Part shown: positions 3,169-58,778 of the stretch, one piece after another | Numbering within the stretch: position 1 is the first letter of the stretch | Layout: each line of letters begins with the position of its first letter | IMG/VR virus record: IMGVR_UViG_3300011115_000708 | Location: 17,029 to 81,028 of that record | Reading direction: 5' to 3' (one strand) | Source of the DNA: a virus | Length of the DNA: 64,000 bases | The notes under the pieces: generated by a model | What the model was told of the DNA's origin: nothing | Databases searched by the model: none | The model's input: only the letters and a program-made list of their open reading frames with translations | Position numbers and translations under genes: made by a program

Positions 3169-4827
3169 ATGAGCAGCCTATCACCATATCAATCAGCATC
3201 ACTTGGACAAGGAGTCCAGGGAGTTGGAAATGCCATCTCCACAATCTTTGACCCGCGCATTCAAATGCAGGCTCAACAAGCTCGCCTGGCTAACGAGGCC
3301 AATGCGCTTGAAGCCAAGTATAAGCCAGACGTGTACAGGTCACAGATCGCACAGAACAACGCGTCTGCGGCAGCAGCAGCAGCATCTGCAGAGAAGTATC
3401 GTGCCGAGACTGAAGCGGCTCGCCAACGTGCAGCATTTGGTCAAAGCGCTGCAAACCTTCAAGCACCACAAGGAGTTTTTCCTGGAGTTCCCTACGCTCC
3501 TGATGTTGTTGCTCCACCATCTCCTCAGGTGATGCAATCATTCCAAGACCAGAGAGCTCTTTACTCAAACCTTTATGGTGGTGGAGGAGCCAATGATCTT
3601 ACTCAAGGAATGGCAAGAAATGCAGCTTTGAATGCCCAGGATGATTTAGCGGCTCGCCGTGCTGCGGTAGCACTTAGCGGAAATCTTCCAAACATCAATC
3701 AGGCATTCATGCCAGAGTTCCAAGGTAAAGTCATTGCGGCTCAAGGAGCTAACGATATTGCTGTTCAAAATGCAAAGTCGCAAGGTGATCTTCAGAGTAC
3801 TATTGCAAAGTCACAAGGTGACATGCAAAACACCATGATTGGTGATATTATCAAGGGAGCATTTGGATCTGGTGGCAGTGGATCTTCACTATCTCCTGGT
3901 ATGAGCTCGATGAAACTTGAAGATCTTGACAAATACGTTCAAGGCAAGTTCTCAATTCCTGGTGAACCAATGAGTCCTGAAAACTTCCAAGCTGCGAATG
4001 CTTACAAGACAAGCATGGCTATGCTAATGGGTCAGGGAGTCGATCCAATGACCGCAGACAGCCTAGCATCTCAACATCATGGAGCTGCATCTTACTCAGA
4101 TCCATTCTTTGGATCTCCACGCATGGAGACTGGCAAGGATTTCAACATGAATCCAATTAGTCCGTCAGAAGCTGCGGATATTGCTAGTAGAATCCGTGAT
4201 GACAAGACGAAGGCTGGAATGGATAGAACTAGCCAAATCATGCAGATGATGTTTCAAAATGGGCAGATTCCAGGAGCTACTGGACTTGCTGCTCCAGGTG
4301 CATCAAATGTTCCTAATGTGGTTCCAGGAACTACCACACCAGCACCTACAGCTCCAAATCCAACCGTGTCTGCGGTTACTCCAGCGCCAGCCACCTTCAC
4401 GCCACCGCAGACGCTTGGTCAGCAAGTTGCATCTGAAAAGAAATCAACCCAGCGCAAAAAGGATGTTGATTACAACAAGGCCACAATGGAATCACTTAGG
4501 AAACAGGCTGATTCTGCAAAAGTTCCATTGGATCAGATTATCGCAACCGCGATGGCTGGTGGCCAGGAAAATAAAGATGCTCTAGAAAGGGCGTTGGCTG
4601 TGCGCCCCCCATCGGTCACTACCAGTTTTGGTCAATCAGGAGCCAGTGTTGGCTTGGTTCCATTTACTAAATATGCTGGCCCGTCAATAAATGACATCCA
4701 GAATGCGGCAAGAGATCCAGAAATTCAAAAGATGTTTGGAATAAATCCAGATCTTGTGAATAATTACCTGCAGACAGGAAATGCTGGACAGACACAGGTT
4801 GGACGATTTACTGTGACCCCGCAATAA
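3169..4827 (+). CDS. Putative internal virion (ejection) protein
   Basis: 552-aa Ala/Gln/Pro-rich ORF in the ejection cluster. Confidence 0.55.
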   Translation: MSSLSPYQSASLGQGVQGVGNAISTIFDPRIQMQAQQARLANEANALEAKYKPDVYRSQIAQNNASAAAAAASAEKYRAETEAARQRAAFGQSAANLQAPQGVFPGVPYAPDVVAPPSPQVMQSFQDQRALYSNLYGGGGANDLTQGMARNAALNAQDDLAARRAAVALSGNLPNINQAFMPEFQGKVIAAQGANDIAVQNAKSQGDLQSTIAKSQGDMQNTMIGDIIKGAFGSGGSGSSLSPGMSSMKLEDLDKYVQGKFSIPGEPMSPENFQAANAYKTSMAMLMGQGVDPMTADSLASQHHGAASYSDPFFGSPRMETGKDFNMNPISPSEAADIASRIRDDKTKAGMDRTSQIMQMMFQNGQIPGATGLAAPGASNVPNVVPGTTTPAPTAPNPTVSAVTPAPATFTPPQTLGQQVASEKKSTQRKKDVDYNKATMESLRKQADSAKVPLDQIIATAMAGGQENKDALERALAVRPPSVTTSFGQSGASVGLVPFTKYAGPSINDIQNAARDPEIQKMFGINPDLVNNYLQTGNAGQTQVGRFTVTPQ

Positions 4828-4828
4828 G

Positions 4829-7800
4829 ATGCCAATCTACAATGTCACTGACCCGACGACTGGCCAATCTCTAAAGCTCACAGGGGATTCACCTCCTACC
4901 GAGCAAGAGCTTTCCCAGATTTTTGCAGCCCAGCCACCAAAACAAGCTGAGAATCCAATTGACAGGATCTTCAGACAGGGAGAGGAGCGCAGACAGAAAG
5001 CAGCAGAAGATGCGGCCAATGCTCCATCTATGCTTGGATCGTTTGCGCGCGGCGCGCGGGAGAGCATTGGGCCTGGAATTGGATCATTGGCTGGAATGAC
5101 AATTGGAGCAGCCATGGCCCCTGCCACAGGTGGTTTATCAATGCTCATACCTCTTGGTGGAACGCTTATAGGAGGCGCTTTAGGAGGTATGGGACAAGGC
5201 GTAGTTGACCCAATGACCGCAGAGCGCGAGAAGGCTCTTCAACGTGATATGGCAACCAATCCAGTATCATCTTGGGTTGGTTCTGTATCTCCTATGGTGG
5301 CCGCAATGAAACCAAATATCTCTGGTATCGGAACGGCTCTGCGCTCGATGGAGGGCGCTGCCACTGCAGCCGAAAGAGCCGCTATCAGCGGAGCCAGGAT
5401 CAACATGGCAGCAGGAGCGGGTATCGGCGGAGGACTCAACCTTGGCATGAATGCTCTTCACGGACAGCTTCCAACGCCAGGTAGCTTTGCTGGTGACGTG
5501 CTGCTTGGTGCGGCATTCAATGAGCCAAACCGTCTGGGACGCGCTCTCGGAATGCACTCGTCTGTGCGGCCAGTCATGCCTGGTGAAGCAGCGCAAACTG
5601 CAGCGCCAGCGGTAGCGCAGTTAGTTGCTCCAGTGGCAACTCCAGCGGCGGAAGCAGTGGCAGCGCCACCAGTAGTGGCAGCAGCTCCAGTATCCACTCG
5701 GCCAGGCTATCTAGGCCCAGAAGCGCCAACTGGCCCAGTTGTAATGCCTCCAGTCGTTGAGGGCCCTTCTGTTGGATTCCAAGGGGTAGAAGGCCCGAAT
5801 CCTGGGACAATCTTCAATCCATCTGATTCAGCCGTGGTGGTAGCACCAGAAGTTCCAGCTTCACTTGGAGCCAATGGCAAACCCAAGAAGCAATATCAAC
5901 TGAAGCCAAGAGAAGAGGCTGGTATGCCACCTAAAGCAGCGGAAGCTCCACCAGTACAGACAGGAACTGGTGAGGCGCTTTCACCAAGAGATGCTGCCAT
6001 GGCTAAAATCAATTCTGAATACCAAGCTGCAGTTGACAAGGCTAACAATATCGAAAACCTATACGATAAAGGGAAAGCACTCAGAACAGCAGAGTTGTTT
6101 AGGAATGGAAAAATTGATAAGCTTAACAAGAATTTCCCACCTCCAGCAGAAGCGCCACCAGTTGCAGCAGAAGCTCCGACAGCTCCACAAGCTCCAGCGG
6201 TTTTAGCAGAACCTATAGTTTCAGCACCTGCTGAAACACCCAAGTTCACTCTTCCAGCAGAATTATCAAAATCTTCACCACGATATGGATACAAAACTTC
6301 AAACTTTACCTTGGAGTTTGCATCGGATCTAGATCGCGCGGCATATGTATTAGCCAATGATTCAATCAGCGGAAAGAAATCAAAATCTGCAGACAAGTTC
6401 AGAAAAGCTATTGCAGACGCTGGACTTGACGAAGCTGCTGTAATCGAACATGGAAAAAAAGTTCGTGAAGTTCTTAAGAAAGACGCAGAAATAGCTCATG
6501 GCTATCAAGAGGATTCGATCTACATGCCCGACCAGGGTTTTGAACAACCACCTTCCGCAGCGAAACCCGCTGCAGTTGAACCGATAGTAACCAATGAAAA
6601 CCAAACCGAAAACAATGTCCAAGGGCAAGCCAATGGGCAAGGGCAAGGGGAAACCCTGCTAACACCACCTGAGCCTCCCCCCGTTGCGGGGGAGGCCGCA
6701 ACTTCAGAACCACTAACCACTAAGCCAAATGCCACTCAAGAAAGGAACCAGCAAGAAAGTAATATCGGAGAACATCAAGCGGGAAATGAGCCACGGAAAA
6801 CCCCAAAAGCAGGCGGTCGCAATCGCGCTGTCGCAGGCGGGGAAAAGCCGCAAGAAGTAGTAATCGACAACTCGATTCCGAAATGGGAGGGAGAAGTTCC
6901 AGAAGCTCTTAATTCAAAAGGAACATCCATTCCGACATCAACCCTGGAAGGAAATCTGAAATATGCCAGGATTCAATATGATAAGGTAGTTGCTGATGGA
7001 CGGCAAGCTACGCCAGAGCTAAGGACAAAAATTTCTCGTCTTGAAGCTCAAATTGCTAGCAGACCAAAATCAATTAAGAGCCAGGCAATTGATATTATTG
7101 TAAAAAGCAATGGTGAATATCCAGTTATTGATGCAGCGATTGCGGCTGGAATGAAGCCACCACCACCTGGACTCAAGCTAATTGAAAGCCACGCAAGAAA
7201 AGGCCATAAGCTAAAAACAAAATCAATAGAAAAAAGAACAAATGCAGATTGGGATGGTCACGTTCCAATCATCGAAGCTCCAGCAGGAGTTGCAAGAGAG
7301 GTTCTGAAAAGAGTGTATGGTGGTAAAAGATCAACTGGAAAAGAGCCATCTACTGTAGCCAGTGAACTTGGAATGACTACCAGTGAGATGTGGGCAAAGC
7401 TAAGGGCTGAGCTCGATCTTGTCTCCAGAGGTGGAGAAACTCCGATTGAGGAGCGCATGAGCGAGTATCTCGGAAAAAATAATGCCGAAGAGCAGGCTCT
7501 AAACTTTGGTAATTCCGCATTAGAACCCTCACCTGGAAAAGAGCCAACACCTGTCAGCGCACTTGAAAAGGGCGATACCATGGTGATTGATGGTGAGGAG
7601 GTGAAGGTGGTAAGCACCACTGAAAACGCAGACGGATCGAGCACTGCGGTGTTGAGAGATGGTGAGAAATTTGGAGATCAGCGAGTGAATAGCGCAGACA
7701 ACAATGATCTCTACGTTGACAAGACACCAGACCAGTTTGCCCAGGAGCAGTCTGCAAAAGCATATGACGAAGCCACTGCTGCTGAAAAGGAGCAGATGAT

Positions 7801-10800
7801 GGCCGAGCAGGCAAAGCAGGAGGATAAGGCATCCGCATCAACAGAATCCAAGCCATATGATCCAAAAGCAATCTCATCGCTTCGCGAGCAAGAACGGTAT
7901 CTTGTAGATAAGCTATGGAATATGAGGAATGGCAATAAGGGAGTGCGAGTTACAGAAGAAGCCCTAGTTAATACGGAAAAAGCGATTGAAAGTGTTAGGG
8001 CTGATATTGAGAAATACAGCCAGCAAAATAAGCCAGTTTCACCAACTGAGGAAGCTCCAGCGTCAGCGGCAAAGCCAACCGAGTCTCCGCAGGAAATAAA
8101 GAACTTCAACAACAGATCTCTGCTTGAGCCACAGGAGGGCGGAGACGCATTTGTCCTACAACAAGAGCAGACAGTAGATGGAGCTGCTGTCACGCAGGCT
8201 GCGGAGCAGGCAAAGGCCAATGAGGCCCTAAACAACTCTCTCCAGCGGAACATCGACTTCGACAAACCAGTTGAGCCAGGACTTCTTCAGTCGGCAATTG
8301 ATGCAATTGATGGTCAAATTAAGGCTACGCAAAATTATCAAAAGTCTAATAGGGGACGAGTAAGTTCATTTCCTGTAGACATCATTGGAGCCCAGGCGTA
8401 TGAGGCCGTGCTCCAGGTTCTAAAGGCATCACTCAAAGCTGGCCAATCTATCAATAAAGCCGTTGCGTCTGCGATGGCAACTATCAAGAATACCAAGATC
8501 ACTAATGAAGAGCGAAGGGCGATTGAAGGAGAATTAAAGTCTCATGCCGTAAAGGTTACTGAGCTTGCCAAGGGCAATGATGCAAACATGAAGGTTCAGA
8601 TCGGCCTAATCGCAGAGTCGATGAAGGATGCTACTGGTAAGCCTGGAAATAGGCTCGGTATCAAAAATGAGCTCGTCAAAAAGTTCCCAGACCAGGCTGA
8701 GTACATCAAAAAGAATCTCAACCGCATCATGGATGAGATGGTGGCGCAGGAAGACCTCATCTCAAAATCCAAGAGTGCATCATCAAAGGAATGGGGAGCA
8801 TGGGGGCGCGAGCGTGTCGCTCAACTTAATGAGATCTACAGCGATGCTCGGAGCGGTCTGTCTGCAAATAAAGCTGCGAAAGCAGTTCGCGCAATCCATG
8901 ATCATCTTTTTACCAATATGGGCAAAAGGATGCATGATATTGCCGATGGTGTGCAGACAGGTAGGGCCAGCAAAGCTGGAAAGACATATGCTGAAAAGCA
9001 CTTTATGCTCAAGCCAGGTGAGGATGGAGTGAATATGGTTAGCACTGATATTCTCCAGGAAACCGACTCAAACAAACTTCTCAACCAACTCGGAAGACAC
9101 CTTGATGAACTCAAGGCATCACCAGATTTTGTCAGCATTGCAGACGCAAAGAAATCTGGATTCCTTGAGCGAGTGATCGAGCATGTGGTTGATCCATCGC
9201 GTGATGGAGAGCTTGCCAAAAACCCAACGCTCAAAAAGAGCGTGGAGTTCTTCTCAGCAATTCGCGGACAAGTTCTCAATTACCTCAAGCAAAACAACAT
9301 CGAAATTGGTGATCTTGGCCCACGTTCAATGAGCCGATCCATGGATGCGGTTAAGGTATTTTCAAACCGAGCTGCGTTTTTGAAAGATGCTGCATCGGCT
9401 TACGAAGCGAAGTGGGGAGCGGAGCTTCGCATCCTTGCAGCAAAAGCAGCAAAAGCTGGCCCTGGAAGCAAAGAGCAAAAAGCATTCCTCAAACGTACCG
9501 CTGAAATAAACAAGCTCGACTCAAAAGAATTTGCCAACCGATACCTGACGGCCATCGAGGCAGGTGAGCGTGGTCTTACCTCAGACGGAAATGACTTTTA
9601 TTCCAATGAAGGTGGCCTCACACCAAACATCTTTAAGGCTCGCGAGTTCGGCCAAGAAGCCGAAACATTCCTGAGGAAGTACATGATCAATGATCCATTT
9701 CAGATGATCAAAAATGAAGTCGTTGCCGCAACTAGGGCTGTGACAAAAGCCAGACTGCTGGGTGGCTTCAATGAAAAAGGTGAATTTGACAATCTTGGTG
9801 GATGGAAGAAACTTCGTGCAGACCTGGAGGCTGAAGGAAATGGTGACATGGTTCCGCTGTATCAGCAGACTCTCAAAAACTATCTCAACGTCAAAGGCAC
9901 AGACAACCAGACAAGCCAGAGCATACTACAAGGCATTCATGGCCTTACGCAGCTAACCTATCTATCAAGAGCCGCAGTATCATCGTTAGGAGAACCAACT
10001 ATGGTTGGCGTGAGAGCTGGAAGTCTGCGAGAAGCTGCAAGAGCTAATGTTGAAACAGCAAAAAATTTCGTTAAGCTGATCCGCAGAGCAAAGCCATCTG
10101 AAAGCATCATCATTGCGGAAGCTCTAGGTGAGATCAAGATTGGCCAACATGCAATGATGGGAAGTGAGTCAATCAACAATGCTTTCAGTGGTCGTGGGTT
10201 ATTTGGGAATCTTGTTAGCCAATTCCATGAGAAGACATTTCTAACAGATTTGACAAATGCCACTATGGCCGCATCAATGGATGTTGGTAAGGCGTTCATC
10301 AACATGAACCTCAAGCTAATAAAAGAAGGTGGAGCTCTAAGCCGTCTGTCTTTGCAAGGATTACGCGAAATCGGAATCAGCAGGGAAGATCTTCCAATGA
10401 TGCAGGAGTTTGCTGCCAGATTTGATAAGGAACCAAACTGGTCAAAGCTCGTCCTGGAAGACAGCCCAGCAGCCGCGAAGTTCCGCGATGCACTCACGTT
10501 GTTCAAGCGCACTGGAGGCGCTCTTGACCCTACCAGAGCCTCGAAAACAATGGCATCTACCAATCCGCTTGCCAGTTTGTTCTATTCGTTGAGTGGATAC
10601 CTTTACGAGTTCCACGACAAGATTACTAGGCGTTATTTAGCAAGAGGAAAAGCCATGATCACTGGAAAGATGATGATGGAAGGTAAAATGCAAAAACTCA
10701 AAGGGCCAGAGCGATGGGCAATCTTTGGGGAGATTGCAAAAGGAGCCGTGGCGCTCTATTCGACCCAATATGCAATTCAGTTGATCCGCGAAAACCTCTA

Positions 10801-11248
10801 CGCAGACCCAGAGCGCATCGCCAAGGATAAGCGCAGAACTCCTGGTCAAATAGCCAAGCTCAGGGCTGCCGCTGCTCTCTCGCGCTCGTCTGTGTTCGGC
10901 CCATACGACAGCATCTTCAACGCCATCACCCAAGCTCGCTACCAGCGCGATCCAGCTACCACCCTCCTTGGTGCTGAGATTGGTGGAATCTCAGACCTAT
11001 TTGGCCAAGTTGCCAACATGATCCAGGGAGAGCGCAATGCTAAAGGAACCAATACCGCAGAGCGGAAATTGACCAGAAGCCTCTACAATATGACCGTGGC
11101 TCCTGCAGTGGGAGCATTGGCGGCCACCATGCCTGGATATGCAGTTCCATCTACCCTAATTCAAGCTGCCTACCATCCAGCAATCAGAGAACAATTTGTC
11201 AAAGGAGTGGCTGGGCCCCCAGTATTGCCTAAAATGCCAGCGAAATAA
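4829..11248 (+). CDS. Giant internal virion / DNA-ejection (polyvalent-type) protein, 2139 aa
   Basis: [10 protein letters not shown]...PT..EL N-terminus, Gly-rich membrane-like segment, disordered middle, helical C-terminal half; last gene before lysis. Confidence 0.7.
6594..6662 (+). CDS. Nested +1-frame small basic peptide [22 protein letters not shown] (22 aa)
   Basis: ATG preceded by in-frame TAG TAA; K/G/M-rich with terminal Cys; not in ORF track. Confidence 0.5.
   Translation: MKTKPKTMSKGKPMGKGKGKPC
6729..6860 (+). CDS. Nested +1-frame small basic protein [43 protein letters not shown] (43 aa)
   Basis: A/C-rich leader (aaccactaaccactaagccaa-ATG), TAG TAA double stop; resembles the widespread phage MPLKKG...KQAVAIALS family (from recall). 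Confidence 0.75.
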
Positions 11249-20463: not shown

Positions 20464-21108
20464 ATGAAAAACAATGATCCAAAGGGTGCAATTGGCGACA
20501 CCAAATCACCGCTAGGGCTAATTCCATCCTGCGCGATGGAACAGACAGCGTGGGTACATAAACTTGGAGCCAAGAAATACGGCCCATACAACTGGCGCAA
20601 GACTGGTGTCTGCGCTACTACCTATGTCAATGCCATCATGCGGCATCTCAATGCCTGGAAGGACGGCGAAACACTAGATCCAGAGAGTGGTTTCTCCCAC
20701 CTGGCTCACATTGCCGCATCCTGCAATATCTTGATGGACGCAGACCACTGTGGAACTCTTGACGATGACCGAGACATTACCCCAGACAATCAGGTAGCAT
20801 TCGATGATTTAACTCCTGTGAAGTCGTTGCCAGACGAGATGTACGACTTCATGAAAGAAGGTGATCGTGTCTGTGAAGGTGATGAAGGGTATTCTGATAC
20901 TGGAGACTATTGGTTTGTCACCGCCTTCAAGACTAAGGACAACTACCGAGTTCCGAAAGGAAGAAAGTACCGCCGTATAAAGAATGGTGGATTAGAGAAA
21001 GAAAGCGTGTCTGCAGATGAATGCAAATGCGGTAGAATCAAGATCAAGCATTTCCTTTTAGGAGTAATCTGCGAAGACTGCGAAGTAAAATGGCAAGACC
21101 CATACTAA
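20464..21108 (+). CDS. dATP/dGTP diphosphohydrolase (DUF5664-like)
   Basis: K..LGLIP, GAKKYG.YNWR, A.MRHL..W..GE.LDPESG..HLAH. Confidence 0.85.
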   Translation: MKNNDPKGAIGDTKSPLGLIPSCAMEQTAWVHKLGAKKYGPYNWRKTGVCATTYVNAIMRHLNAWKDGETLDPESGFSHLAHIAASCNILMDADHCGTLDDDRDITPDNQVAFDDLTPVKSLPDEMYDFMKEGDRVCEGDEGYSDTGDYWFVTAFKTKDNYRVPKGRKYRRIKNGGLEKESVSADECKCGRIKIKHFLLGVICEDCEVKWQDPY

Positions 21109-21266
21109 TGAAACACCCATGCTCACTTTGCGGATCAACGAATTGGCCCGATCCAGAATCACTTTGTCCGTTATGCGATGGGCCTGCCGAACCTGGCCCA
21201 GATCCAGATGAGGACTGCCCAGACCACGACTCGCATGACGAAACTATTTATCAAGAAAATATATGA
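21108..21266 (+). CDS. Small Zn-ribbon protein (52 aa)
   Basis: CSLC...CPLC; coupled to neighbours by TAATG and ATGA; not in ORF track. Confidence 0.55.
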   Translation: MKHPCSLCGSTNWPDPESLCPLCDGPAEPGPDPDEDCPDHDSHDETIYQENI

Positions 21267-21574
21267 GTGATACACCAGAAACAGATAATCAATCATTCGT
21301 TGCAGAACATAACCTCGGTAAAGAACTATGCGTCGAGGCGTGGTTTTGTGAAATCATGGAACGCGAACGAGATGCGTGGAAATTGAACTCTCAATCAAAT
21401 CGTGATGAATATCATAGATTGATGATTGAAGTAGATGATCAGAATTTTCTAATTAAGAACATCATCAAATTACTGGAAATACCGGAGAATCTATCTAAGG
21501 CAGAACATGGTGCTAAAATACATAGAACCATCAAAGAACTGCTTGAGATAAAAAAATACTGCAAAGTACCCTAA
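21263..21574 (+). CDS. Hypothetical protein, MSDTPETD family
   Basis: MSDTPETD...MERERD coiled coil. Confidence 0.65.
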   Translation: MSDTPETDNQSFVAEHNLGKELCVEAWFCEIMERERDAWKLNSQSNRDEYHRLMIEVDDQNFLIKNIIKLLEIPENLSKAEHGAKIHRTIKELLEIKKYCKVP

Positions 21575-21580
21575 CACAAC

Positions 21581-21655
21581 CAGCGATGGACTTGATCGAA
21601 GTCGCCTCGACCGATAAACGAGGAAACGCAGGTAGAGAATCCTGCTCGCTGACCA
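21581..21655 (+). ncRNA. tRNA-like cloverleaf ending in ACCA (non-canonical; loop contains GAT)
   Basis: Stems CAGCGA/TCGCTG, GACTT/AAGTC, CCTCG/CGAGG, GCAGG/CCTGC; 75 nt; intergenic. Confidence 0.55.
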
Positions 21656-21689
21656 CTTTTATGAGAGAACAAAACAACGACGACGAACC

Positions 21690-22052
21690 ATGAACAATCC
21701 ACCAATGACCGAACCCGAAGCGAGAACCGTGGCACTCCTTCGGATGCACTTTGGCTGCACTTTCGGAAAACTCGCTATGTGCTGCCAAGCATTATGGGAT
21801 GCTAACCGCTGTGAGGAAATTACTGGATACCGATATGGCTCCCCAATGGGGCAAGCTATGGTAATCGCAATGGAAGATCACTTCCAGCTAGAACGCTGCG
21901 AGTCTGACAACATGAGCATGGGCGAGCAACGATGCGCAACTTGCGGACTGTCTCAGGTGGCAATTAGCCGATCGCACGATACGCCCAAGCAATGCGGGTT
22001 CTGCGGAGAGTTTGCTTCGATGTGGAATTCTATCAATCCGAACGAACCATGA
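21690..22052 (+). CDS. Hypothetical Zn-ribbon protein
   Basis: CATC...CGFC. Confidence 0.6.
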   Translation: MNNPPMTEPEARTVALLRMHFGCTFGKLAMCCQALWDANRCEEITGYRYGSPMGQAMVIAMEDHFQLERCESDNMSMGEQRCATCGLSQVAISRSHDTPKQCGFCGEFASMWNSINPNEP

Positions 22053-22375
22053 ACATTATCCTAAATAAAGAACAGGAAGACAGCATTGTTATAAGCTATC
22101 AAGAAGCTATTACTGCTGCAATTAAAGCTGCAGTAGATAAAGAACTTAGCTCAATTAGGAATGATTGGAAAATTCATGATCAAGTTCAACAATTTGTGCG
22201 AAAACAGTTTGGAGAAATGTTGAACTCAATTATTGCTGAAAAGCTAATAGAACGAGAGTTAGTTGAAGAACTGGTTAAAGAAAAACTAGCATCCTCAATT
22301 AAAAGTCGTCTTACCAAACAACTAAATGCTTTGTCAAAAGCAGAAATAGCAATTGAACACGAAGGAGATTTATGA
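22049..22375 (+). CDS. Hypothetical protein
   Basis: ATGA-coupled; AT-rich. Confidence 0.6.
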   Translation: MNIILNKEQEDSIVISYQEAITAAIKAAVDKELSSIRNDWKIHDQVQQFVRKQFGEMLNSIIAEKLIERELVEELVKEKLASSIKSRLTKQLNALSKAEIAIEHEGDL

Positions 22376-22638
22376 ATAAAGAAAACGCACATTTATACCT
22401 ACCGCTTGTGCAAGCACTGGCAGAAGGGAAAACGATTCAATTCAATCAAGGCGACGCATGGATAGACGCTGCAACTAATGCTGATTTCAAGTGGTTGGAC
22501 AGTCCTGACAATTACCGCGTGAAGCCAGAACCGCGCACATGGAGTTTCTGGTTAGATAAAAAAGGAAATTTGTGGCATTACCACATAACTCCACTTGCTG
22601 ATTGGAAACGCATCACCGTGCAGGAGGTGCTGGAATGA
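22372..22638 (+). CDS. Hypothetical phage protein
   Basis: LPLVQALAEGKTIQ...YRVKPEPR motif common in phages. Confidence 0.7.
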   Translation: MNKENAHLYLPLVQALAEGKTIQFNQGDAWIDAATNADFKWLDSPDNYRVKPEPRTWSFWLDKKGNLWHYHITPLADWKRITVQEVLE

Positions 22639-22835
22639 GCGACACGCCAGAAACAGATGCGGCAGAAATCGTTCTTTCTCCATTAGAAGGCGATCAGTGG
22701 GTTCGAGCTGACGTTGCCCGTAGGCTAGAACGCGAGCGTAATATAGCTTTTGCTGACATCAATTTGCTTTGCGACAAAGTATTGGAATTGAATACACTGC
22801 TGCAAGCACATGGAATTATCGAACACGAAAACTAA
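22635..22835 (+). CDS. Hypothetical protein, MSDTPETD family
   Basis: MSDTPETD...ARRLERERN. Confidence 0.65.
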   Translation: MSDTPETDAAEIVLSPLEGDQWVRADVARRLERERNIAFADINLLCDKVLELNTLLQAHGIIEHEN

Positions 22836-22836
22836 A

Positions 22837-23187
22837 ATGACTGACAAACAAATAAACCAACGGATCGCGGAAGCGTGTGGGTGGAAATTGAAATCAAATG
22901 GATTAAATCCCATGTGGTCTTGGCAAAATGAATCTCTAACTCACAGAATAAAGTGGGTAGCTAACAAAGAAATGGCTTCTCAAGGAGTATTGCCAAACTA
23001 TGTAAACGACCTAAACGCCATGCACGAAGTTCAGAAGGTGCTAACAAATACTCAATGGGGAGTTTATGTTAATTACCTAACTGCTACCACAAAACATGAT
23101 TACAGACGAGCGTGTGCTGAGGCATCCGCTCGCCAACGAGCAGAAGCCTTCCTAAGGACACTTGGAAGATGGGAGGAGGAAGTATGA
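22837..23187 (+). CDS. Phage protein (ABA-sandwich-like)
   Basis: INQRIAEACGW...PNY.NDLNAMHE...ARQRAEAFL; the repeat ends inside this gene. Confidence 0.6.
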   Translation: MTDKQINQRIAEACGWKLKSNGLNPMWSWQNESLTHRIKWVANKEMASQGVLPNYVNDLNAMHEVQKVLTNTQWGVYVNYLTATTKHDYRRACAEASARQRAEAFLRTLGRWEEEV

Positions 23188-23266
23188 ATGCGAAACATCA
23201 CGCTTTCAGGAGAATCAATACTTTCAGCATTTGCTGAAATCGACAAAACTTACCAAACACAAAACG

Positions 23267-23518
23267 ATGGAAATTGAACTACAAATCTGGAAATCAAAAG
23301 CAGAAGGTTATTTGCAAGACTACCTCGATGCTCTGAAGCGCATGGATAAGATCTCAGCCGATCGCGACCTCTGGAAAGCTGAAGCGACTCGCTGGCGCGA
23401 TATGTATCTCCAGTACGACGAAATGCTGGAGGGACAAGTGCAAGAATCAGTGAACAAGATCAACAAGATCTGGGAAGATCTCAATGAGCTCAAAAAGAAA
23501 GTCGAGGACGAACTGTGA
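23267..23518 (+). CDS. Coiled-coil hypothetical protein
   Basis: WKSKAE...DRD; homologous to 58779-59093. Confidence 0.55.
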   Translation: MEIELQIWKSKAEGYLQDYLDALKRMDKISADRDLWKAEATRWRDMYLQYDEMLEGQVQESVNKINKIWEDLNELKKKVEDEL

Positions 23519-37727: not shown

Positions 37728-38639
37728 TTAGACTGCTGCAATCGTGAACAATGCGTTCGGAACTCCAGAAGTGAACGTGCGCTTCGCTGCCATCGTCAAC
37801 TTGCCAAGGCGATTCTCAGTTGGTGAGAATCTGCGATCGATGCTGATGATTTGCACCGTAGCATCGTAGTTGAGACCACCAGTTACGCTTGTCGAAACGT
37901 CTAGTGTGACCGCTGATAACTCCTCACCGGCATCGAGTGAGTCGAAGTAGGTATCAAAGAACGAAGAACTCACACCAATCGGTGTACAACTGATCGTTGA
38001 TCCGATATTGCCAAGTGCCATCGTGACGGTTCCAATTCCATCGACAACCACTGGAGTCAATGCAAGATCAAATGAGATCTCGAATCCATCAGACGAATAG
38101 AATGGCGTTCCAGCGGCAAGAGTTGCAGCGTAGGGAGCAGCAATAATCAATGCTGGATCAAATGCTGTTCCAATTGAGTTCCCACCAGTACCAACGTAGG
38201 TATAGTACGATGTGAGAGCATTTGGGTTAGCCGAATTCTTGACTAGGCCGGTGAACTGAACCGATCCAAGTTGCGTATTGTTTGCCGTGCAGCGCAGTGT
38301 CGGCAGCTTGGTGATCGCGGCGTTGTGGATCGTATAAATTGCATCAACCGAGGTGATTACAAGTGCCTTATCGCTTGCTCCGTAGATCGATGTGCCAATC
38401 GTAGTATTTCCGTATGGGAAGAGAGTTGTGAGTGCTTCGATCTCGCCAACTGGCTCAAACTCGATAACGACCTGCATATCGGTCTTGGACTTGCCAACCA
38501 TACCATAAGCATCGACTTCCTTATCGAAGGTCGATTGGTTCATGGTGAGAGTCACTCCACCTTTAGAGTAGAAGGTTGCAGAATCGTAAACGATCTTGCA
38601 TGGGCCGCGAACAATGGTAGTGCGATCAAAAGTTGCCAT
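37728..38639 (-). CDS. Major tail (tube) protein
   Basis: IVRGP...SKGGV N-terminus; position after tail terminator. Confidence 0.7.
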   Translation of the reverse strand: MATFDRTTIVRGPCKIVYDSATFYSKGGVTLTMNQSTFDKEVDAYGMVGKSKTDMQVVIEFEPVGEIEALTTLFPYGNTTIGTSIYGASDKALVITSVDAIYTIHNAAITKLPTLRCTANNTQLGSVQFTGLVKNSANPNALTSYYTYVGTGGNSIGTAFDPALIIAAPYAATLAAGTPFYSSDGFEISFDLALTPVVVDGIGTVTMALGNIGSTISCTPIGVSSSFFDTYFDSLDAGEELSAVTLDVSTSVTGGLNYDATVQIISIDRRFSPTENRLGKLTMAAKRTFTSGVPNALFTIAAV

Positions 38640-38644
38640 AATAC

Positions 38645-39124
38645 TTATCTAGTTGGGGATGTGTTGCTTAGTCCGATTGGAATTGTGAATGAGACTGCTT
38701 GCTGAAGCATTGAATCATTCGATTGCTGTGAAACTGAGTTGAAGAGCATAACACCACCGGAGAGAGGTTGATCATCAGCATCCATCGGTTGAGTGTGATG
38801 GATGATGCGGCATACTGCCTCAGCGATCTCGGTTGCGCTAGGAACTTTCGCTGCCTTAGACCTCCAAACTGATGGTATTTCAGAGACTGTCACTCTGAAC
38901 TTCGCATCTGACAAGTATGGGCCAGGCGTGTTCTGACTGTCGGTCTCTGCTGACTCGAAATTGACAAGAACGAATGCACCGGCAGTCTGCATCGCGTTGA
39001 GGATGGATTTCTCGACATCCTTGTGATCCTCGACGAGTACTGGGATCTTTGGTGCTGTTCTAAAGTAGTCGTGAGTTGCGAGGGTCTCAGCAATGCTCTC
39101 GACGATTTGACGTATGATGGTCAT
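38645..39124 (-). CDS. Tail terminator / completion protein
   Basis: Size and position between adaptor and tube. Confidence 0.55.
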   Translation of the reverse strand: MTIIRQIVESIAETLATHDYFRTAPKIPVLVEDHKDVEKSILNAMQTAGAFVLVNFESAETDSQNTPGPYLSDAKFRVTVSEIPSVWRSKAAKVPSATEIAEAVCRIIHHTQPMDADDQPLSGGVMLFNSVSQQSNDSMLQQAVSFTIPIGLSNTSPTR

Positions 39125-39573
39125 GGTGCGCTTGTGAAGTCCATGAGTGCCGCTCCACCGTATCTGAACGGTGACGAGCTTGAGTAGGCAAATGCGGACG
39201 ATCCAGCGTCATCTGAATCGGCATCGTTCTTCGATAGGTCGTCCAGATAGTTCTCAGCAGACTCAACCGAGATCTTGCGATCTTCACCATTGAACTCAGC
39301 GAGTGATGGGAATGCTTCCGAGAGGAGACGACGAGCAAGTGCGTAGCCGTGTCTGTGCGCCCCAGGAGGGACGTAGAGACCCGTGTTGGTAACTTGTACC
39401 AGTCCACGCTTTCTACGTCCCGCATTGACCCGTGAGACAATCTCTTGGGCGATCTGCCCGAGGATGTCGTTTAGTTTGGTTTCTGGCGTTGGTGACTCTG
39501 CAAGTAATGCTTCAAACTCGTCAGATGCGAGTCTGTCCTTGATGCCATCAATAGTCAGTAGAGTCCAAGCCAT
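39121..39573 (-). CDS. Head-tail adaptor (Mu gp36-like)
   Basis: Helical; R....A..YL.DL pattern; follows capsid genes. Confidence 0.6.
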   Translation of the reverse strand: MAWTLLTIDGIKDRLASDEFEALLAESPTPETKLNDILGQIAQEIVSRVNAGRRKRGLVQVTNTGLYVPPGAHRHGYALARRLLSEAFPSLAEFNGEDRKISVESAENYLDDLSKNDADSDDAGSSAFAYSSSSPFRYGGAALMDFTSAP

Positions 39574-39583
39574 ATAAAAGAGT

Positions 39584-39625
39584 GCCTCGGACTAGGGGAA
39601 AAACGACAAAACCCTAATCCGAGGC
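39584..39625 (-). terminator. Hairpin after the capsid genes
   Basis: GCCTCGGATTAGGG/CCCTAGTCCGAGGC stem then ACTCTTTT. Confidence 0.6.
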
Positions 39626-39637
39626 TATATTTGTTCC

Positions 39638-40039
39638 TTAGAACAAGAGTTTAGCTACCATGTTGCCAGCAATCGTTCCAGCACTTAGAGTCATCGTTTG
39701 CGCGATGCGAACATAGCGTCGAGTGTTTGCAGGAACGCGGAAGCGAATAGTCTTAGCTGCAACTCCGACACCACCAGCGGCAGTTTGAGTTGTAGAGATT
39801 GCAGGATCTACAGCAGCAAAGGTCACATTATCAGCACTGTCTTCCAGTGCGTAAGTGATAATTTTTGCGTTAGTAATTCCAGAAGAAGCAGGAGCAGAAA
39901 GCTCGAAAACGACTTTCTCTACATCGCCACCAATGACCTGTTCAAGGTCAAAGCCAGCGGTGTTTGCTCCAGCTTGAGCGATTGCGACCGTACTTGTAAA
40001 AGCAGCGTCTTGATTATTGCGATTGAATTCGTATGCCAT
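39638..40039 (-). CDS. Capsid decoration/cement protein
   Basis: LEDSADN.TF...RRYVR; directly after the major capsid gene. Confidence 0.65.
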   Translation of the reverse strand: MAYEFNRNNQDAAFTSTVAIAQAGANTAGFDLEQVIGGDVEKVVFELSAPASSGITNAKIITYALEDSADNVTFAAVDPAISTTQTAAGGVGVAAKTIRFRVPANTRRYVRIAQTMTLSAGTIAGNMVAKLLF

Positions 40040-40058
40040 ATAGGTGTTCTATTTAGAG

Positions 40059-40994
40059 TTAGGCGAATGTCTCGGTATCGGAGATCGAGTCCGTGACGAT
40101 GATTGGAATTCCGAACGACTCAGTTGCAAGACCATTGAGAAGACCACCGAAGGACTCTTGCTTGGTGTTGGGAGTAGTGGAACGACTGATTGACAACTGG
40201 AATGCCGAGCGACGACTCATCAAGAAGTGAGTAGGCTTGACACCAACTGGGAACTGACGAAGCAGATCGAGCAACTTGGCATCGGTGCAGGTTGTTCCAG
40301 TAGCAGTACCAAGGTTCTTGATACGACCGACAGCATACTTGTTGGCGCACTGAAGACCAACCCATGCGGTAAGGTCAGCAATGTAAGCAGCGAAGCGTTT
40401 GCCATTTCCATCAGATGCGTCACCTTCGCGGAATGCGCTCAGATCGATGGTCGTGTTCTGACCATAGACGTATTGCACACCTTGCGAACCAGCAGCGATT
40501 GCGTATACAGACGAGCAAGCACTACCGGAACCTTGTGTTCCATCAACAACAACACTACCAAGAGTGCTGACGAGTGCTTGAAGACCAGGGAATCCTTTTC
40601 CGTCTTGTGACGTTCCGTAGATGGTTTGTTGACCGACTTTGTACAGGGCTTCAGCCATGACACCGCGTGCTTCAAGTGCTTGATAAGCAACTGCACCGTC
40701 GATATAGGCGTTTGCAGCAGCCTTATCACACTCAACGCGAGCGGACAGGAGGAATGCTTCGATCGTGCGTTCGGTGAACTGCGATTTCACTGCGTCCGTT
40801 CCTTCGTTCAAGGCGCGGAAAGCAACCGTAGGACGACCGGTACGAGCGGAGATCTTGTAGGATGTACCAGGAATGGTACGAGCAGGGATGATCGTAGTTT
40901 CTGGTGCAACGGTGGCGACTTCTTCGATCAAGCCCACTGCCATATCAGCAGAGTTGAGCTTGGCGAGGTCTAATAGGGTAAGGTTATTAGCCAT
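40059..40994 (-). CDS. Major capsid protein
   Basis: LTLLDLAK, FRALNEG, GFPGL, FGIPIIVTDSI..TE. Confidence 0.85.
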   Translation of the reverse strand: MANNLTLLDLAKLNSADMAVGLIEEVATVAPETTIIPARTIPGTSYKISARTGRPTVAFRALNEGTDAVKSQFTERTIEAFLLSARVECDKAAANAYIDGAVAYQALEARGVMAEALYKVGQQTIYGTSQDGKGFPGLQALVSTLGSVVVDGTQGSGSACSSVYAIAAGSQGVQYVYGQNTTIDLSAFREGDASDGNGKRFAAYIADLTAWVGLQCANKYAVGRIKNLGTATGTTCTDAKLLDLLRQFPVGVKPTHFLMSRRSAFQLSISRSTTPNTKQESFGGLLNGLATESFGIPIIVTDSISDTETFA

Positions 40995-56477: not shown

Positions 56478-56620
56478 GCATAATTGGAAGAGATCCGATC
56501 CTTACTTACAAGATCACCCAGTTGATCGGCAAACGAGCAGAACGCGCTAGAGTACGCCAACAGCGTATCGATGCTATTCTATCACCACTAGCAACCATCA
56601 AACGCATCCTTGGACTATGA
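56465..56620 (+). CDS. Hypothetical protein (51 aa)
   Basis: Its stop overlaps the ATG that begins repeat copy 2; not in ORF track. Confidence 0.45.
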   Translation: MDTLSIIGRDPILTYKITQLIGKRAERARVRQQRIDAILSPLATIKRILGL

Positions 56621-56771
56621 AACACCCATGCTCACTTTGCGGATCAACGAATTGGCCCGATCCAGAATCACTTTGTCCGTTATGCGATGGGCCTGCCGAA
56701 CCTGGCCCAGATCCAGATGAGGACTGCCCAGACCACGACTCGCATGACGAAACTATTTATCAAGAAAATAT

Positions 56772-57083
56772 ATGAGTGATACACCAGAAACAGATAATCA
56801 ATCATTCGTTGCAGAACATAACCTCGGTAAAGAACTATGCGTCGAGGCGTGGTTTTGTGAAATCATGGAACGCGAACGAGATGCGTGGAAATTGAACTCT
56901 CAATCAAATCGTGATGAATATCATAGATTGATGATTGAAGTAGATGATCAGAATTTTCTAATTAAGAACATCATCAAATTACTGGAAATACCGGAGAATC
57001 TATCTAAGGCAGAACATGGTGCTAAAATACATAGAACCATCAAAGAACTGCTTGAGATAAAAAAATACTGCAAAGTACCCTAA
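56772..57083 (+). CDS. Hypothetical protein, MSDTPETD family (duplicate)
   Basis: Identical to 21263-21574. Confidence 0.65.
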   Translation: MSDTPETDNQSFVAEHNLGKELCVEAWFCEIMERERDAWKLNSQSNRDEYHRLMIEVDDQNFLIKNIIKLLEIPENLSKAEHGAKIHRTIKELLEIKKYCKVP

Positions 57084-57089
57084 CACAAC

Positions 57090-57164
57090 CAGCGATGGAC
57101 TTGATCGAAGTCGCCTCGACCGATAAACGAGGAAACGCAGGTAGAGAATCCTGCTCGCTGACCA
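57090..57164 (+). ncRNA. tRNA-like cloverleaf (duplicate)
   Basis: Identical to 21581-21655. Confidence 0.55.
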
Positions 57165-57198
57165 CTTTTATGAGAGAACAAAACAACGACGACGAACC

Positions 57199-57561
57199 AT
57201 GAACAATCCACCAATGACCGAACCCGAAGCGAGAACCGTGGCACTCCTTCGGATGCACTTTGGCTGCACTTTCGGAAAACTCGCTATGTGCTGCCAAGCA
57301 TTATGGGATGCTAACCGCTGTGAGGAAATTACTGGATACCGATATGGCTCCCCAATGGGGCAAGCTATGGTAATCGCAATGGAAGATCACTTCCAGCTAG
57401 AACGCTGCGAGTCTGACAACATGAGCATGGGCGAGCAACGATGCGCAACTTGCGGACTGTCTCAGGTGGCAATTAGCCGATCGCACGATACGCCCAAGCA
57501 ATGCGGGTTCTGCGGAGAGTTTGCTTCGATGTGGAATTCTATCAATCCGAACGAACCATGA
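57199..57561 (+). CDS. Hypothetical Zn-ribbon protein (duplicate)
   Basis: Identical to 21690-22052. Confidence 0.6.
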   Translation: MNNPPMTEPEARTVALLRMHFGCTFGKLAMCCQALWDANRCEEITGYRYGSPMGQAMVIAMEDHFQLERCESDNMSMGEQRCATCGLSQVAISRSHDTPKQCGFCGEFASMWNSINPNEP

Positions 57562-57884
57562 ACATTATCCTAAATAAAGAACAGGAAGACAGCATTGTTA
57601 TAAGCTATCAAGAAGCTATTACTGCTGCAATTAAAGCTGCAGTAGATAAAGAACTTAGCTCAATTAGGAATGATTGGAAAATTCATGATCAAGTTCAACA
57701 ATTTGTGCGAAAACAGTTTGGAGAAATGTTGAACTCAATTATTGCTGAAAAGCTAATAGAACGAGAGTTAGTTGAAGAACTGGTTAAAGAAAAACTAGCA
57801 TCCTCAATTAAAAGTCGTCTTACCAAACAACTAAATGCTTTGTCAAAAGCAGAAATAGCAATTGAACACGAAGGAGATTTATGA
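57558..57884 (+). CDS. Hypothetical protein (duplicate)
   Basis: Identical to 22049-22375. Confidence 0.6.
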   Translation: MNIILNKEQEDSIVISYQEAITAAIKAAVDKELSSIRNDWKIHDQVQQFVRKQFGEMLNSIIAEKLIERELVEELVKEKLASSIKSRLTKQLNALSKAEIAIEHEGDL

Positions 57885-58147
57885 ATAAAGAAAACGCACA
57901 TTTATACCTACCGCTTGTGCAAGCACTGGCAGAAGGGAAAACGATTCAATTCAATCAAGGCGACGCATGGATAGACGCTGCAACTAATGCTGATTTCAAG
58001 TGGTTGGACAGTCCTGACAATTACCGCGTGAAGCCAGAACCGCGCACATGGAGTTTCTGGTTAGATAAAAAAGGAAATTTGTGGCATTACCACATAACTC
58101 CACTTGCTGATTGGAAACGCATCACCGTGCAGGAGGTGCTGGAATGA
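57881..58147 (+). CDS. Hypothetical protein (duplicate)
   Basis: Identical to 22372-22638. Confidence 0.7.
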   Translation: MNKENAHLYLPLVQALAEGKTIQFNQGDAWIDAATNADFKWLDSPDNYRVKPEPRTWSFWLDKKGNLWHYHITPLADWKRITVQEVLE

Positions 58148-58344
58148 GCGACACGCCAGAAACAGATGCGGCAGAAATCGTTCTTTCTCCATTAGAAGGC
58201 GATCAGTGGGTTCGAGCTGACGTTGCCCGTAGGCTAGAACGCGAGCGTAATATAGCTTTTGCTGACATCAATTTGCTTTGCGACAAAGTATTGGAATTGA
58301 ATACACTGCTGCAAGCACATGGAATTATCGAACACGAAAACTAA
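58144..58344 (+). CDS. Hypothetical protein, MSDTPETD family (duplicate)
   Basis: Identical to 22635-22835. Confidence 0.65.
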   Translation: MSDTPETDAAEIVLSPLEGDQWVRADVARRLERERNIAFADINLLCDKVLELNTLLQAHGIIEHEN

Positions 58345-58345
58345 A

Positions 58346-58738
58346 ATGACTGACAAACAAATAAACCAACGGATCGCGGAAGCGTGTGGGTGGAAATTGA
58401 AATCAAATGGATTAAATCCCATGTGGTCTTGGCAAAATGAATCTCTAACTCACAGAATAAAGTGGGTAGCTAACAAAGAAATGGCTTCTCAAGGAGTATT
58501 GCCAAACTATGTAAACGACCTAAACGCCATGCACGAAGTTCAGAAGGTGCTAACAAATACTCAATGGGGAGTTTATGTTAATTACCTAACTGCTACCACA
58601 AAACATGATTACAGACGAGCGTGTGCTGAGGCATCCGCTCGCCAGAAAGCAGAAGCATTTCTAAAGACATTTGGAGAATGGGAGGAGGAAGCAGAAGAAT
58701 GTTTACAAGACTTCCTCGATTCTTTCAGCATTTGCTGA
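58346..58738 (+). CDS. Phage protein (ABA-sandwich-like), variant C-terminus
   Basis: Identical to the 22837 gene up to 58644, then diverged. Confidence 0.6.
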   Translation: MTDKQINQRIAEACGWKLKSNGLNPMWSWQNESLTHRIKWVANKEMASQGVLPNYVNDLNAMHEVQKVLTNTQWGVYVNYLTATTKHDYRRACAEASARQKAEAFLKTFGEWEEEAEECLQDFLDSFSIC

Positions 58739-58778
58739 AATCGACAAAATCTACAGAACACAAAACGATGGAAACTAA

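Follow-up and report, generated by a model that had tools for sequence, protein, structure and literature searches.

Layout of the locus

The DNA analyzed here, termed the window, is a stretch of 64,000 nucleotides (nt) which corresponds to bases 17029-81028 of the 81,028-bp IMG/VR record IMGVR_UViG_3300011115_000708, and its source is a freshwater podophage. The window harbors a giant virion-protein gene of 2139 codons, the +1 frame of which contains two short open reading frames (ORFs): ORF1, specifying 22 amino acids (aa), and ORF2, specifying 43 aa. The present study concerns the status of these nested ORFs, and principally that of ORF2. Homologues of the giant protein number 17 in all, with the full-length homologues P0124-P0132 sharing 44-87% identity and the others being more distant. 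Comparisons at the DNA level comprised the window, L004 (IMG/VR), L093 (a 43,106-bp contig from a Joint Genome Institute metagenome, encoding P0124), L090, and L091, while P0130, P0131, and P0132 were compared as proteins only. The features of the locus are as follows.

4829..11248, + strand: giant virion-protein gene, putatively of the internal/ejection type, frame 0; 2139 codons, open through both nested ORFs
6585..6590, + strand: double stop TAG-TAA in the +1 frame, directly 5' of ORF1 (TAG-TGA in L090/L091)
6594..6662, + strand: ORF1, Lys/Gly/Pro/Met-rich, +1 frame, starting at ATG6594; 22 codons (26 in relatives), isoelectric point (pI) 10.5
6673..6696, + strand: GC hairpin GCCUCCCCC-N6-GGGGGAGGC, which starts 10 nt past the ORF1 stop; U tract absent
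6697..6728, + strand: ORF2 leader, A/C-rich, without a Shine-Dalgarno (SD) sequence, predicted to be unstructured; 6707-6728 invariant in 3/3 ORF2 carriers
6703..6862, + strand: ORF2 insertion (leader plus gene), approximate extent; 22 nt at this place in L090/L091 and P0125-P0128
6729..6860, + strand: ORF2, +1 frame, starting at ATG6729, PHROG 2423 family, predicted basic helix-loop-helix protein; 43 codons, pI 10.9, net charge of approximately +10

A second TAG-TAA in the +1 frame (6858-6863) ends ORF2. A preliminary description of this DNA, made from the sequence alone, had listed the 2139-codon ORF, both +1 ORFs, the double stops, and the hairpin, and each was found where it had been placed. 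Its view of the host frame as low in complexity is likewise in agreement with the finding that the giant-frame residues across the nest form the least hydrophobic part of the protein (hydrophobic fraction, 0.05-0.12 versus a mean of 0.26), which is consistent with a disordered linker between modules.

No SD sequence was observed at the genes of this phage, the leaders of which are A/C-rich and G-poor (approximately 16% G); SD-less starts span all window genes, for example, those at 1198, 2335, 13792, and 16912. This pattern suggests a host that does not depend on SD-led initiation, such as a member of the Bacteroidota. When scored with a leader weight matrix trained on 52 long genes of the record, with all 3038 ATGs as background, the ORF2 leader obtained 3.67 (training median, 4.0), corresponding to the 97th percentile and bearing out its earlier portrayal as typical of the phage, while the start context of ORF1 was placed at the 76th percentile. 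The start region of ORF2 is, moreover, predicted to be unpaired. Neither a sigma-70-type promoter nor an intrinsic terminator was found near the nest. Programmed frameshifting into the +1 frame was rejected, as stops lie just 5' of both ATGs and a slippery site is absent.

Selection on the +1 frame across ORF2

ORF2 is carried by three independent assemblies (the window, L004, and L093), always inside the giant ORF and with both frames open across the overlap, and its 43-aa product is identical (100%) in all three. Between the window and L004, the giant gene differs at 1304 of 6417 aligned bases (approximately 20%), these differences being distributed over the three frame-0 codon positions as 255/174/875; the resulting predominance of third positions (67%), as is usual for coding genes, is apparent on both sides of the nest. 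Within ORF2, by comparison, 5 differences were recorded where 26.8 were expected (Poisson P = 3e-7), and all 5 fall at frame-0 position 1, which represents position 3 of the +1 frame. The corresponding +1 codon changes are Ile ATA/ATC, Asn AAC/AAT, Ala GCG/GCC, Ser TCG/TCT, and Gln CAG/CAA; read in frame 0, the same sites produce I/L, H/Y, G/R, A/S, and G/S, all of which are non-synonymous. That 5/5 changes are synonymous in the +1 frame has a probability of 0.004 against an expectation of 1/3 and of 2.9e-4 against the gene-wide share, and L093 contributes no variable ORF2 site beyond these 5. The comparison of frame 0 with the +1 frame among homologues, which the preliminary description had put forward as a check, thus came out in favor of ORF2.

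As a control, all 19 alternative-frame ATG ORFs of at least 20 codons within the giant gene were scored in the same manner. In 17 of these, differences pile up at the ORF's own second position, that is, at the wobble position of frame 0, and the majority are disrupted in relatives. The only two which deviate from the frame-0 pattern are ORF2 ([0,0,5] and [0,0,4]) and ORF1 ([4,1,4] and [4,1,3]). The longest alternative-frame ORF, a +1-frame ORF of 134 codons at window positions 8628-9032, yielded [7,61,16] and is broken in L004 and L093.

On this evidence from sequence comparison, the +1 frame is under purifying selection across the ORF2 overlap and is the dominant frame there, while the giant frame displays no amino acid constraint over the same interval, all 5 changes being non-synonymous. 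A 151-nt contig from a riverine run covers the ORF2/giant-gene junction with zero differences; the four DNA runs mapped to the locus otherwise returned short contigs of relatives and unrelated PHROG 2423 genes and were not decisive.

ORF2 represents a widespread family of small phage proteins

The product of ORF2 matches the PHROG 2423 profile with an E value of 1.5e-21 (77 bits), its residues 1-43 aligning to positions 1-43 of 52. A tblastn search located relatives in 477 phage records (cultured or curated), among them records of Pbunavirus, Acinetobacter, Caulobacter, Burkholderia, Serratia, and Prochlorococcus phages, and a collection of 5.8 billion proteins contains 5186 clusters of relatives of 43-76 aa, with identities of up to 88-94%, in addition to 2305 longer proteins which carry the module at their N terminus. 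The preliminary description had regarded the 43-aa peptide as a common stand-alone phage protein, and these searches substantiate that view. The 5.8-billion-protein collection lacks the precise 43-aa sequence, its best match being 88% identical. In a 30-member alignment, ORF2 retains all 20 invariant and 6 near-invariant residues, and it conforms to the signature M-P-L-K-x-G-x-S-x-K ... N-I-x-x-E ... G-x-P-Q-K-Q-x-x-A-I-A ... A-x-K. The structure predicted by AlphaFold2 is a two-helix hairpin (predicted local distance difference test [pLDDT] score, 87). A fold search of BFVD with this model returned sequence homologues only, and a corresponding search of the PDB returned nothing significant; a resemblance to transcription activator-like effector repeats in a PDB sequence search (E = 2) was taken as chance.

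Searches of Pfam (E <= 1) and NCBIfam with the ORF2 protein were without match. The likeness to DUF6496 (PF20106) proposed in the preliminary description therefore holds in part: the C-terminal KQAxAIALSxA(R/G)K motif is common to both, and a 100-aa homologue, P0254, passes the DUF6496 cut-off (27.1 bits versus 24) on the shared motif only, but ORF2 itself does not reach the threshold, the N-terminal half of DUF6496 is unlike that of ORF2, and DUF6496 is itself uncharacterized.

Members of the family from cultured phages, to which ORF2 is 63-76% identical, include PB1 gp20, SCUT-S1 ORF22, KPP22 ORF084, and ALA45591 of phiEap-2, all of which resemble ORF2 in size, charge, and possession of the MPLKKG signature. 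Of 80 viral loci, nearly all have the homologue as a free-standing gene, as do phiEap-2, MED4-117, and PB1. The genes of cultured phages are located beside portal, Mu-F-type, and protease genes, whereas ORF2 is nested in an ejection-type gene at the opposite end of the virion module; members are otherwise free-standing genes or N-terminal modules within the head-morphogenesis module, and ORF2 thus differs from them in context, not in sequence. The module is tandemly duplicated or fused in P0140, P0142, P0155, P0212, and P0254 (the fusions being to domains of unknown function, including DUF5872, DUF5661, and a DUF6496-scoring tail). From these comparisons, the 43-aa module occurs both as a stand-alone protein and as a mobile N-terminal module. 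The family, which comprises over 5,000 small clusters and over 2,000 fusion proteins, is very large, uncharacterized, and probably virion associated.

ORF2 is the sole copy of the family in the 81-kb record, and it was left uncalled by gene callers both in this record and in relatives, as the preliminary description had anticipated of standard annotation.

ORF2 as a frame-preserving insertion

In the window, L004, and L093, approximately 160 nt (leader plus ORF2) stand in place of 22 nt, so that the giant gene is longer by a net 138 nt (46 codons). The ORF2 segment is missing from L090/L091, P0125, and P0126, in which the giant ORF continues; in P0127 and P0128, deletions take out the ORF2 site, and P0130 and P0132 likewise are without ORF2. 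The insert maintains the giant frame and contains no frame-0 stop. More generally, although indels of 3, 12, and 138 nt occur, no stop interrupts frame 0 across the nest in the window, L004, L093, L090, L091, P0124-P0128, or P0130; nor does the window offer, past the nest, an in-frame start codon at which reading of the downstream 1460 codons could begin. The equivalent frame was found open in 9 of approximately 60 scanned free-standing homologues, mostly on high-GC contigs. The frame-keeping insert, the small share of homologues in which this frame is open, and the lack of a restart codon together suggest that continuity of the giant protein is under selection.

A donor of ORF2 was not found; among free-standing homologues, nucleotide identity reaches 70-77% at best, starting within a few bases of the ATG. 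The fragments L090, L091, and L092, which are only 15-40% complete, yielded no PHROG 2423 copy. When the frame-0 peptide over ORF2 was compared with 1.84 billion representative proteins in search of other nested cases, 0 matches were obtained.

The junction just 3' of the hairpin is a rearrangement hot spot, at which large deletions in P0127 and P0128 begin and P0131 starts (the aligned region being window positions ~6700-8200), and the giant protein behaves, as judged from its homologues, as a chain of exchangeable modules. In L004, positions 3434-3442 (window positions ~7435-7445) display a GAA-to-TAA change followed by an in-frame ATG two codons on (PIE*RMAQHF), a split which yields products of 869 aa and 1320 aa. 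This split may represent a modular break with restart or a sequencing error.

ORF1 and the hairpin

ORF1 and the hairpin are present in all five DNAs, whether or not ORF2 is. The preliminary description had treated ORF1, the hairpin, and ORF2 as one absorbed two-gene cassette, a proposal which is not sustained: since all close relatives of the giant gene possess ORF1 and the hairpin and ORF2 constitutes a separate 138-nt presence/absence insertion, the two ORFs have separate histories.

L004, L093, L090, and L091 encode an identical 26-aa ORF1 peptide, MKAKPMQKGKPMTKGKPMSKGKGKPC, and the 3 variable ORF1 sites among them are all synonymous in the +1 frame and non-synonymous in frame 0. Relative to these, ORF1 of the window exhibits a 12-nt repeat-unit deletion together with nucleotide changes of which 4 are synonymous and 5 non-synonymous. 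In frame 0, the image of ORF1, NESQANA..QGQANAEGQGETLL, is kept in P0130 (57-64% identical), the flanks of which are otherwise unalignable, and is not kept in P0132. The hairpin consists of a 9-bp stem (6673-6681/6688-6696) and a loop (6682-6687), with a predicted energy of -21 to -22 kcal/mol and a z score of -3 to -4. Its stem is invariant among relatives, including those without ORF2, with loops of CGUUGC, AAUCAC, and CGUAAC. It is not terminator-like, and a pattern search of IMG/VR retrieved three known relatives only. The hairpin may serve in RNA processing or stability or may isolate the ORF2 start region.

Tiny Lys-rich ORFs (22-47 aa) were also observed directly 3' of the PHROG 2423 gene in unrelated phages, often with overlapping stop and start codons. 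Examples of the neighboring peptides are MPKYTGPAKPQKPMPKKGGKKK in L028 and MPGHYGDMKAKGGGKAKPMMAKGTKKKGGKKK in L036, and the ORFs recorded are as follows.

L028, 669-737: Lys-rich ORF beside a PHROG 2423 gene
L048, 6647-6715: Lys-rich ORF beside a PHROG 2423 gene
L036, 7174-7272: Lys-rich ORF beside a PHROG 2423 gene
L013, 3235-3327: Lys-rich ORF beside a PHROG 2423 gene
L085, 7129-7251: Lys-rich ORF beside a PHROG 2423 gene

Such arrangements hint that small basic peptides form a recurrent pair. With respect to ORF1 itself, it would seem somewhat probable, on the pattern of substitutions, that the peptide is encoded and translated. Retention of its start and stop in 5/5 DNAs, inferable also in P0130, accords with its earlier designation as a gene, as do the 3/3 +1-synonymous sites among L004, L093, L090, and L091 and the Lys-rich ORFs adjoining PHROG 2423 genes elsewhere, whereas the evidence is weaker than that for ORF2. 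A substantial possibility, albeit one to which we assign less than an even chance, is that the conserved entity is an RNA or DNA signal composed of the 15-nt CCAATGNCCAAGGGCAA repeats and the hairpin, e.g., a processing or protein-binding site, and not a peptide. The repetitive nature of the ORF1 stretch with its variable repeat number (the 12-nt indel), the invariant stem with a variable loop, the lower-ranking start context, the absence of a protein family, and the 5 non-synonymous versus 4 synonymous +1-frame changes in the window all point in that direction.

Interpretation of the nested gene and alternative explanations

Judged from the sequence comparisons, ORF2 is probably a real gene under selection which, missed by annotation, is nested within a giant virion gene that is continuous. 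It belongs to an ancient family of strongly basic, two-helix proteins of 43-76 aa with a DUF6496-like KQAxAIALS motif, the members of which are elsewhere free-standing head-morphogenesis genes or N-terminal modules of prohead proteases. Here, the gene and its own leader are located, as a 138-nt frame-preserving insertion, in a disordered linker of the giant protein which previously held an older nested element, namely, the Lys/Gly/Pro/Met-rich ORF1 followed by a stable hairpin. Ribosomes are proposed to start separately at ATG6729 on the unstructured A/C-rich leader, as they would at other genes of this SD-less phage, and other ribosomes would translate this RNA in frame 0 into a spacer free of amino acid constraint. 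The claim of dual coding made in the preliminary description is thereby upheld in so far as ORF2 is selected in its own frame and the giant frame is open; translation of ORF2 is inferred from selection.

Several points weigh against this interpretation. ORF2-carrying sequences number three and variable sites five, and no RNA runs were listed for the locus. Translation of frame 0 across the nest would follow from preservation of the frame, and the relative P0131 begins at a Met (MEQAAP) at the hairpin position, representing a giant gene split at the junction. In a tree of the C-terminal 1000 residues, P0124 joins the ORF2-less P0126 and P0127 with support of 100/100; the ORF2 carriers are therefore not monophyletic and the locus is mosaic, a distribution which may have arisen from one gain followed by recombination or from repeated loss. 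The low divergence of ORF2 could, in part, reflect recent spread of the cassette by recombination. The giant protein returned no Pfam, PHROG, NCBIfam, or PDB sequence match, and gene order and the SU10-type adaptor constitute the sole grounds for its ejection-type label. For ORF1, no family was found in Pfam or PHROG, no homologues were found beyond the giant-gene family, and its conservation could lie at the nucleic acid level.

The mosaic distribution of carriers would also be expected if ORF2 were a recent passenger, silent or dispensable, whose apparent conservation derives from recent entry or from spread by recombination. Many giant-gene relatives are without ORF2, and the +1 synonymous sites of ORF2 are approximately 4 times less diverged than those of its flanks (5/44 versus 875/2139), as such a history would predict; it is, nevertheless, considered unlikely, given that all 5 changes are synonymous in the +1 frame (P = 0.004) and that the start, stop, leader, and family-invariant residues are intact in what is the only copy in the record. 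A similarly low probability is assigned to the explanation whereby the junction separates two virion genes as an intergenic region across which frame 0, though open, is unproductive, for instance, through RNA processing at the hairpin. Against the uninterrupted frame 0 in carriers and relatives, maintained through indels of three different sizes, the lack of an in-frame start near the junction for the downstream 1460 codons, and the absence of a terminator-like or promoter-like site must be set the natural split at the junction in P0131, which starts just past the hairpin position, the split of the L004 giant gene elsewhere (TAA, then ATG), the lack of amino acid constraint in frame 0 over the nest, and the chance openness of the same relative frame in the 9 free-standing homologues mentioned above.

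A third explanation would regard ORF1 and ORF2 as lysis accessories, that is, cationic peptides which disrupt the outer membrane, of the phiKT gp28 type; a cationic lysis peptide is reportedly described in a preprint (10.1101/515445). Both nested peptides are strongly cationic and the endolysin gene starts 200 nt past the giant gene. As the family occurs elsewhere in head modules, prohead protease fusions, and virions rather than in lysis cassettes, and as ORF1 is Gly/Pro-rich without an amphipathic helix, we deem this explanation highly improbable.

A possible function of the ORF2 product

In other phages (phiEap-2, MED4-117, and PB1), the PHROG 2423 gene is situated between portal/Mu-F-type head-morphogenesis genes and protease, scaffold, and capsid genes, and it lies directly 3' of Mu-F-type genes in at least 10 of the 80 viral loci and in MED4-117 (as determined by simple tblastn). 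The module forms the N terminus of the prohead protease in BcepB1A, Acinetobacter AB2-like myophages, and uncultured phages; in BcepB1A gp26 and the AB2-like proteases, the N-terminal 35-38 residues are homologous to ORF2, the difference being that the module is there fused in frame to the protease/scaffold, whereas ORF2 specifies a separate 43-aa product. SCUT-S1 ORF22 of a Pbunavirus (68 aa, 7.46 kDa) is 63% identical to ORF2 over 35 residues and was detected in purified particles by nano-liquid chromatography-tandem mass spectrometry, with 7 peptides and 77% coverage (PMC6521218, Table 1). The homologue KPP22 ORF084 carries the annotation "virion protein."

The presence of the Pbunavirus homologue in virions and the fusion of the module to prohead proteases form the basis for regarding the ORF2 product as a small head-packaged protein made together with the ejection-type protein, a proposition to which we would give an even chance by analogy with these relatives. 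The same two observations lend indirect support to the co-packaging suggested in the preliminary description. It fits the nesting of ORF2 in a gene for a type of protein that is stored in the head and ejected. It is also conceivable that the ORF2 product binds DNA or is co-ejected.

Relation to known embedded genes

Embedded phage genes, such as Rz1 and phiX174 E, are well known, and overprinting, in which a new frame arises within an old gene, is their accepted origin. The polarity is reversed in the present case, as is directly apparent from natural variants: the small gene is the old and very widely conserved one, and the gene enclosing it is younger and far rarer. Sister genomes display the empty site, and the locus would accordingly represent a clean natural case of dual coding through insertion into a tolerant linker; it further illustrates that gene callers lose even highly conserved genes once these are nested.

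Among two-component spanins, including lambda Rz/Rz1, embedded genes have been documented (Kongari et al. 2018, PMC6139136). Like ORF2, Rz1 is a small gene wholly enclosed, on the same strand, by a larger one and lying in its +1 frame, with its own internal start, and such genes are routinely missed by pipelines. Rz1, however, acts as a partner of its host gene, its presumed origin being in situ, whereas ORF2 belongs to an old, widespread, and normally free-standing family inserted into an unrelated gene; furthermore, the host frame of ORF2 is an unconstrained spacer, and a lipobox and signal peptide are absent. The overprinted genes of small viruses, e.g., phiX174 E in D and B/K in A (PMC8227390), similarly produce two proteins from one DNA stretch under asymmetric selection between frames. 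There, the embedded frame is the new one and originated de novo, while here the embedded frame is ancestral, the linker reading of the host gene is new, and the overlap stems from insertion of an existing gene. Overprinting was consequently rejected for ORF2, as the embedded gene is old and widespread, with more than 5,000 homologue clusters versus 17 homologues of the host gene, most of which lack the insert, and the host reading of the overlap is new and unconstrained.

It is conceivable, although we consider it doubtful, that linkers of giant virion genes act as landing pads which capture small genes in an alternative frame, a route opposite to overprinting. A small basic head protein and a Lys/Gly/Pro-rich peptide would then be placed on the late transcript of an ejection-type protein and would be made, packaged, and perhaps ejected with the DNA.

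The giant gene and its genomic setting

The gene order of the podovirus part of the record comprises TerL, portal, a 342-aa protein, the major capsid protein, an SU10-type adaptor (PF24175, E 1.4e-13), and tail and tail-fiber genes, followed by a gene for a 552-aa protein, the giant gene, and then an M15 endolysin gene. From this order, the giant protein is putatively of the ejection type; short-tailed phages store such proteins in the head and then eject them (PMC9509320). The earlier naming of the gene as an ejection-protein gene is in keeping with gene order but finds no match in family or structure: sequence searches of Pfam, PHROG, NCBIfam, and the PDB revealed no similarity to a characterized ejection protein, and the model obtained with AlphaFold2 for the C-terminal 1039 aa, although all-helical, was of too low a confidence (pLDDT 51) to serve as a fold-search query. 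Near the N terminus, residues ~80-215 (window positions 4829-5600) contain long Gly/Ala-rich hydrophobic stretches, which could be membrane-inserting segments such as an ejection protein would have.

The record also contains a direct 2.2-kb repeat, 98.4% identical, the copies of which are 35.5 kb apart (window positions 21104-23273 and 56614-58774; 38132-40301 and 73642-75802 in genome numbering). Since the contigs of giant-gene relatives measure 43-44 kb, this repeat indicates that the 81-kb record probably consists of two phages fused via the shared repeat. A terminal repeat of approximately 690 bp (92%) is located at genome positions 2-678 and 80343-81028.

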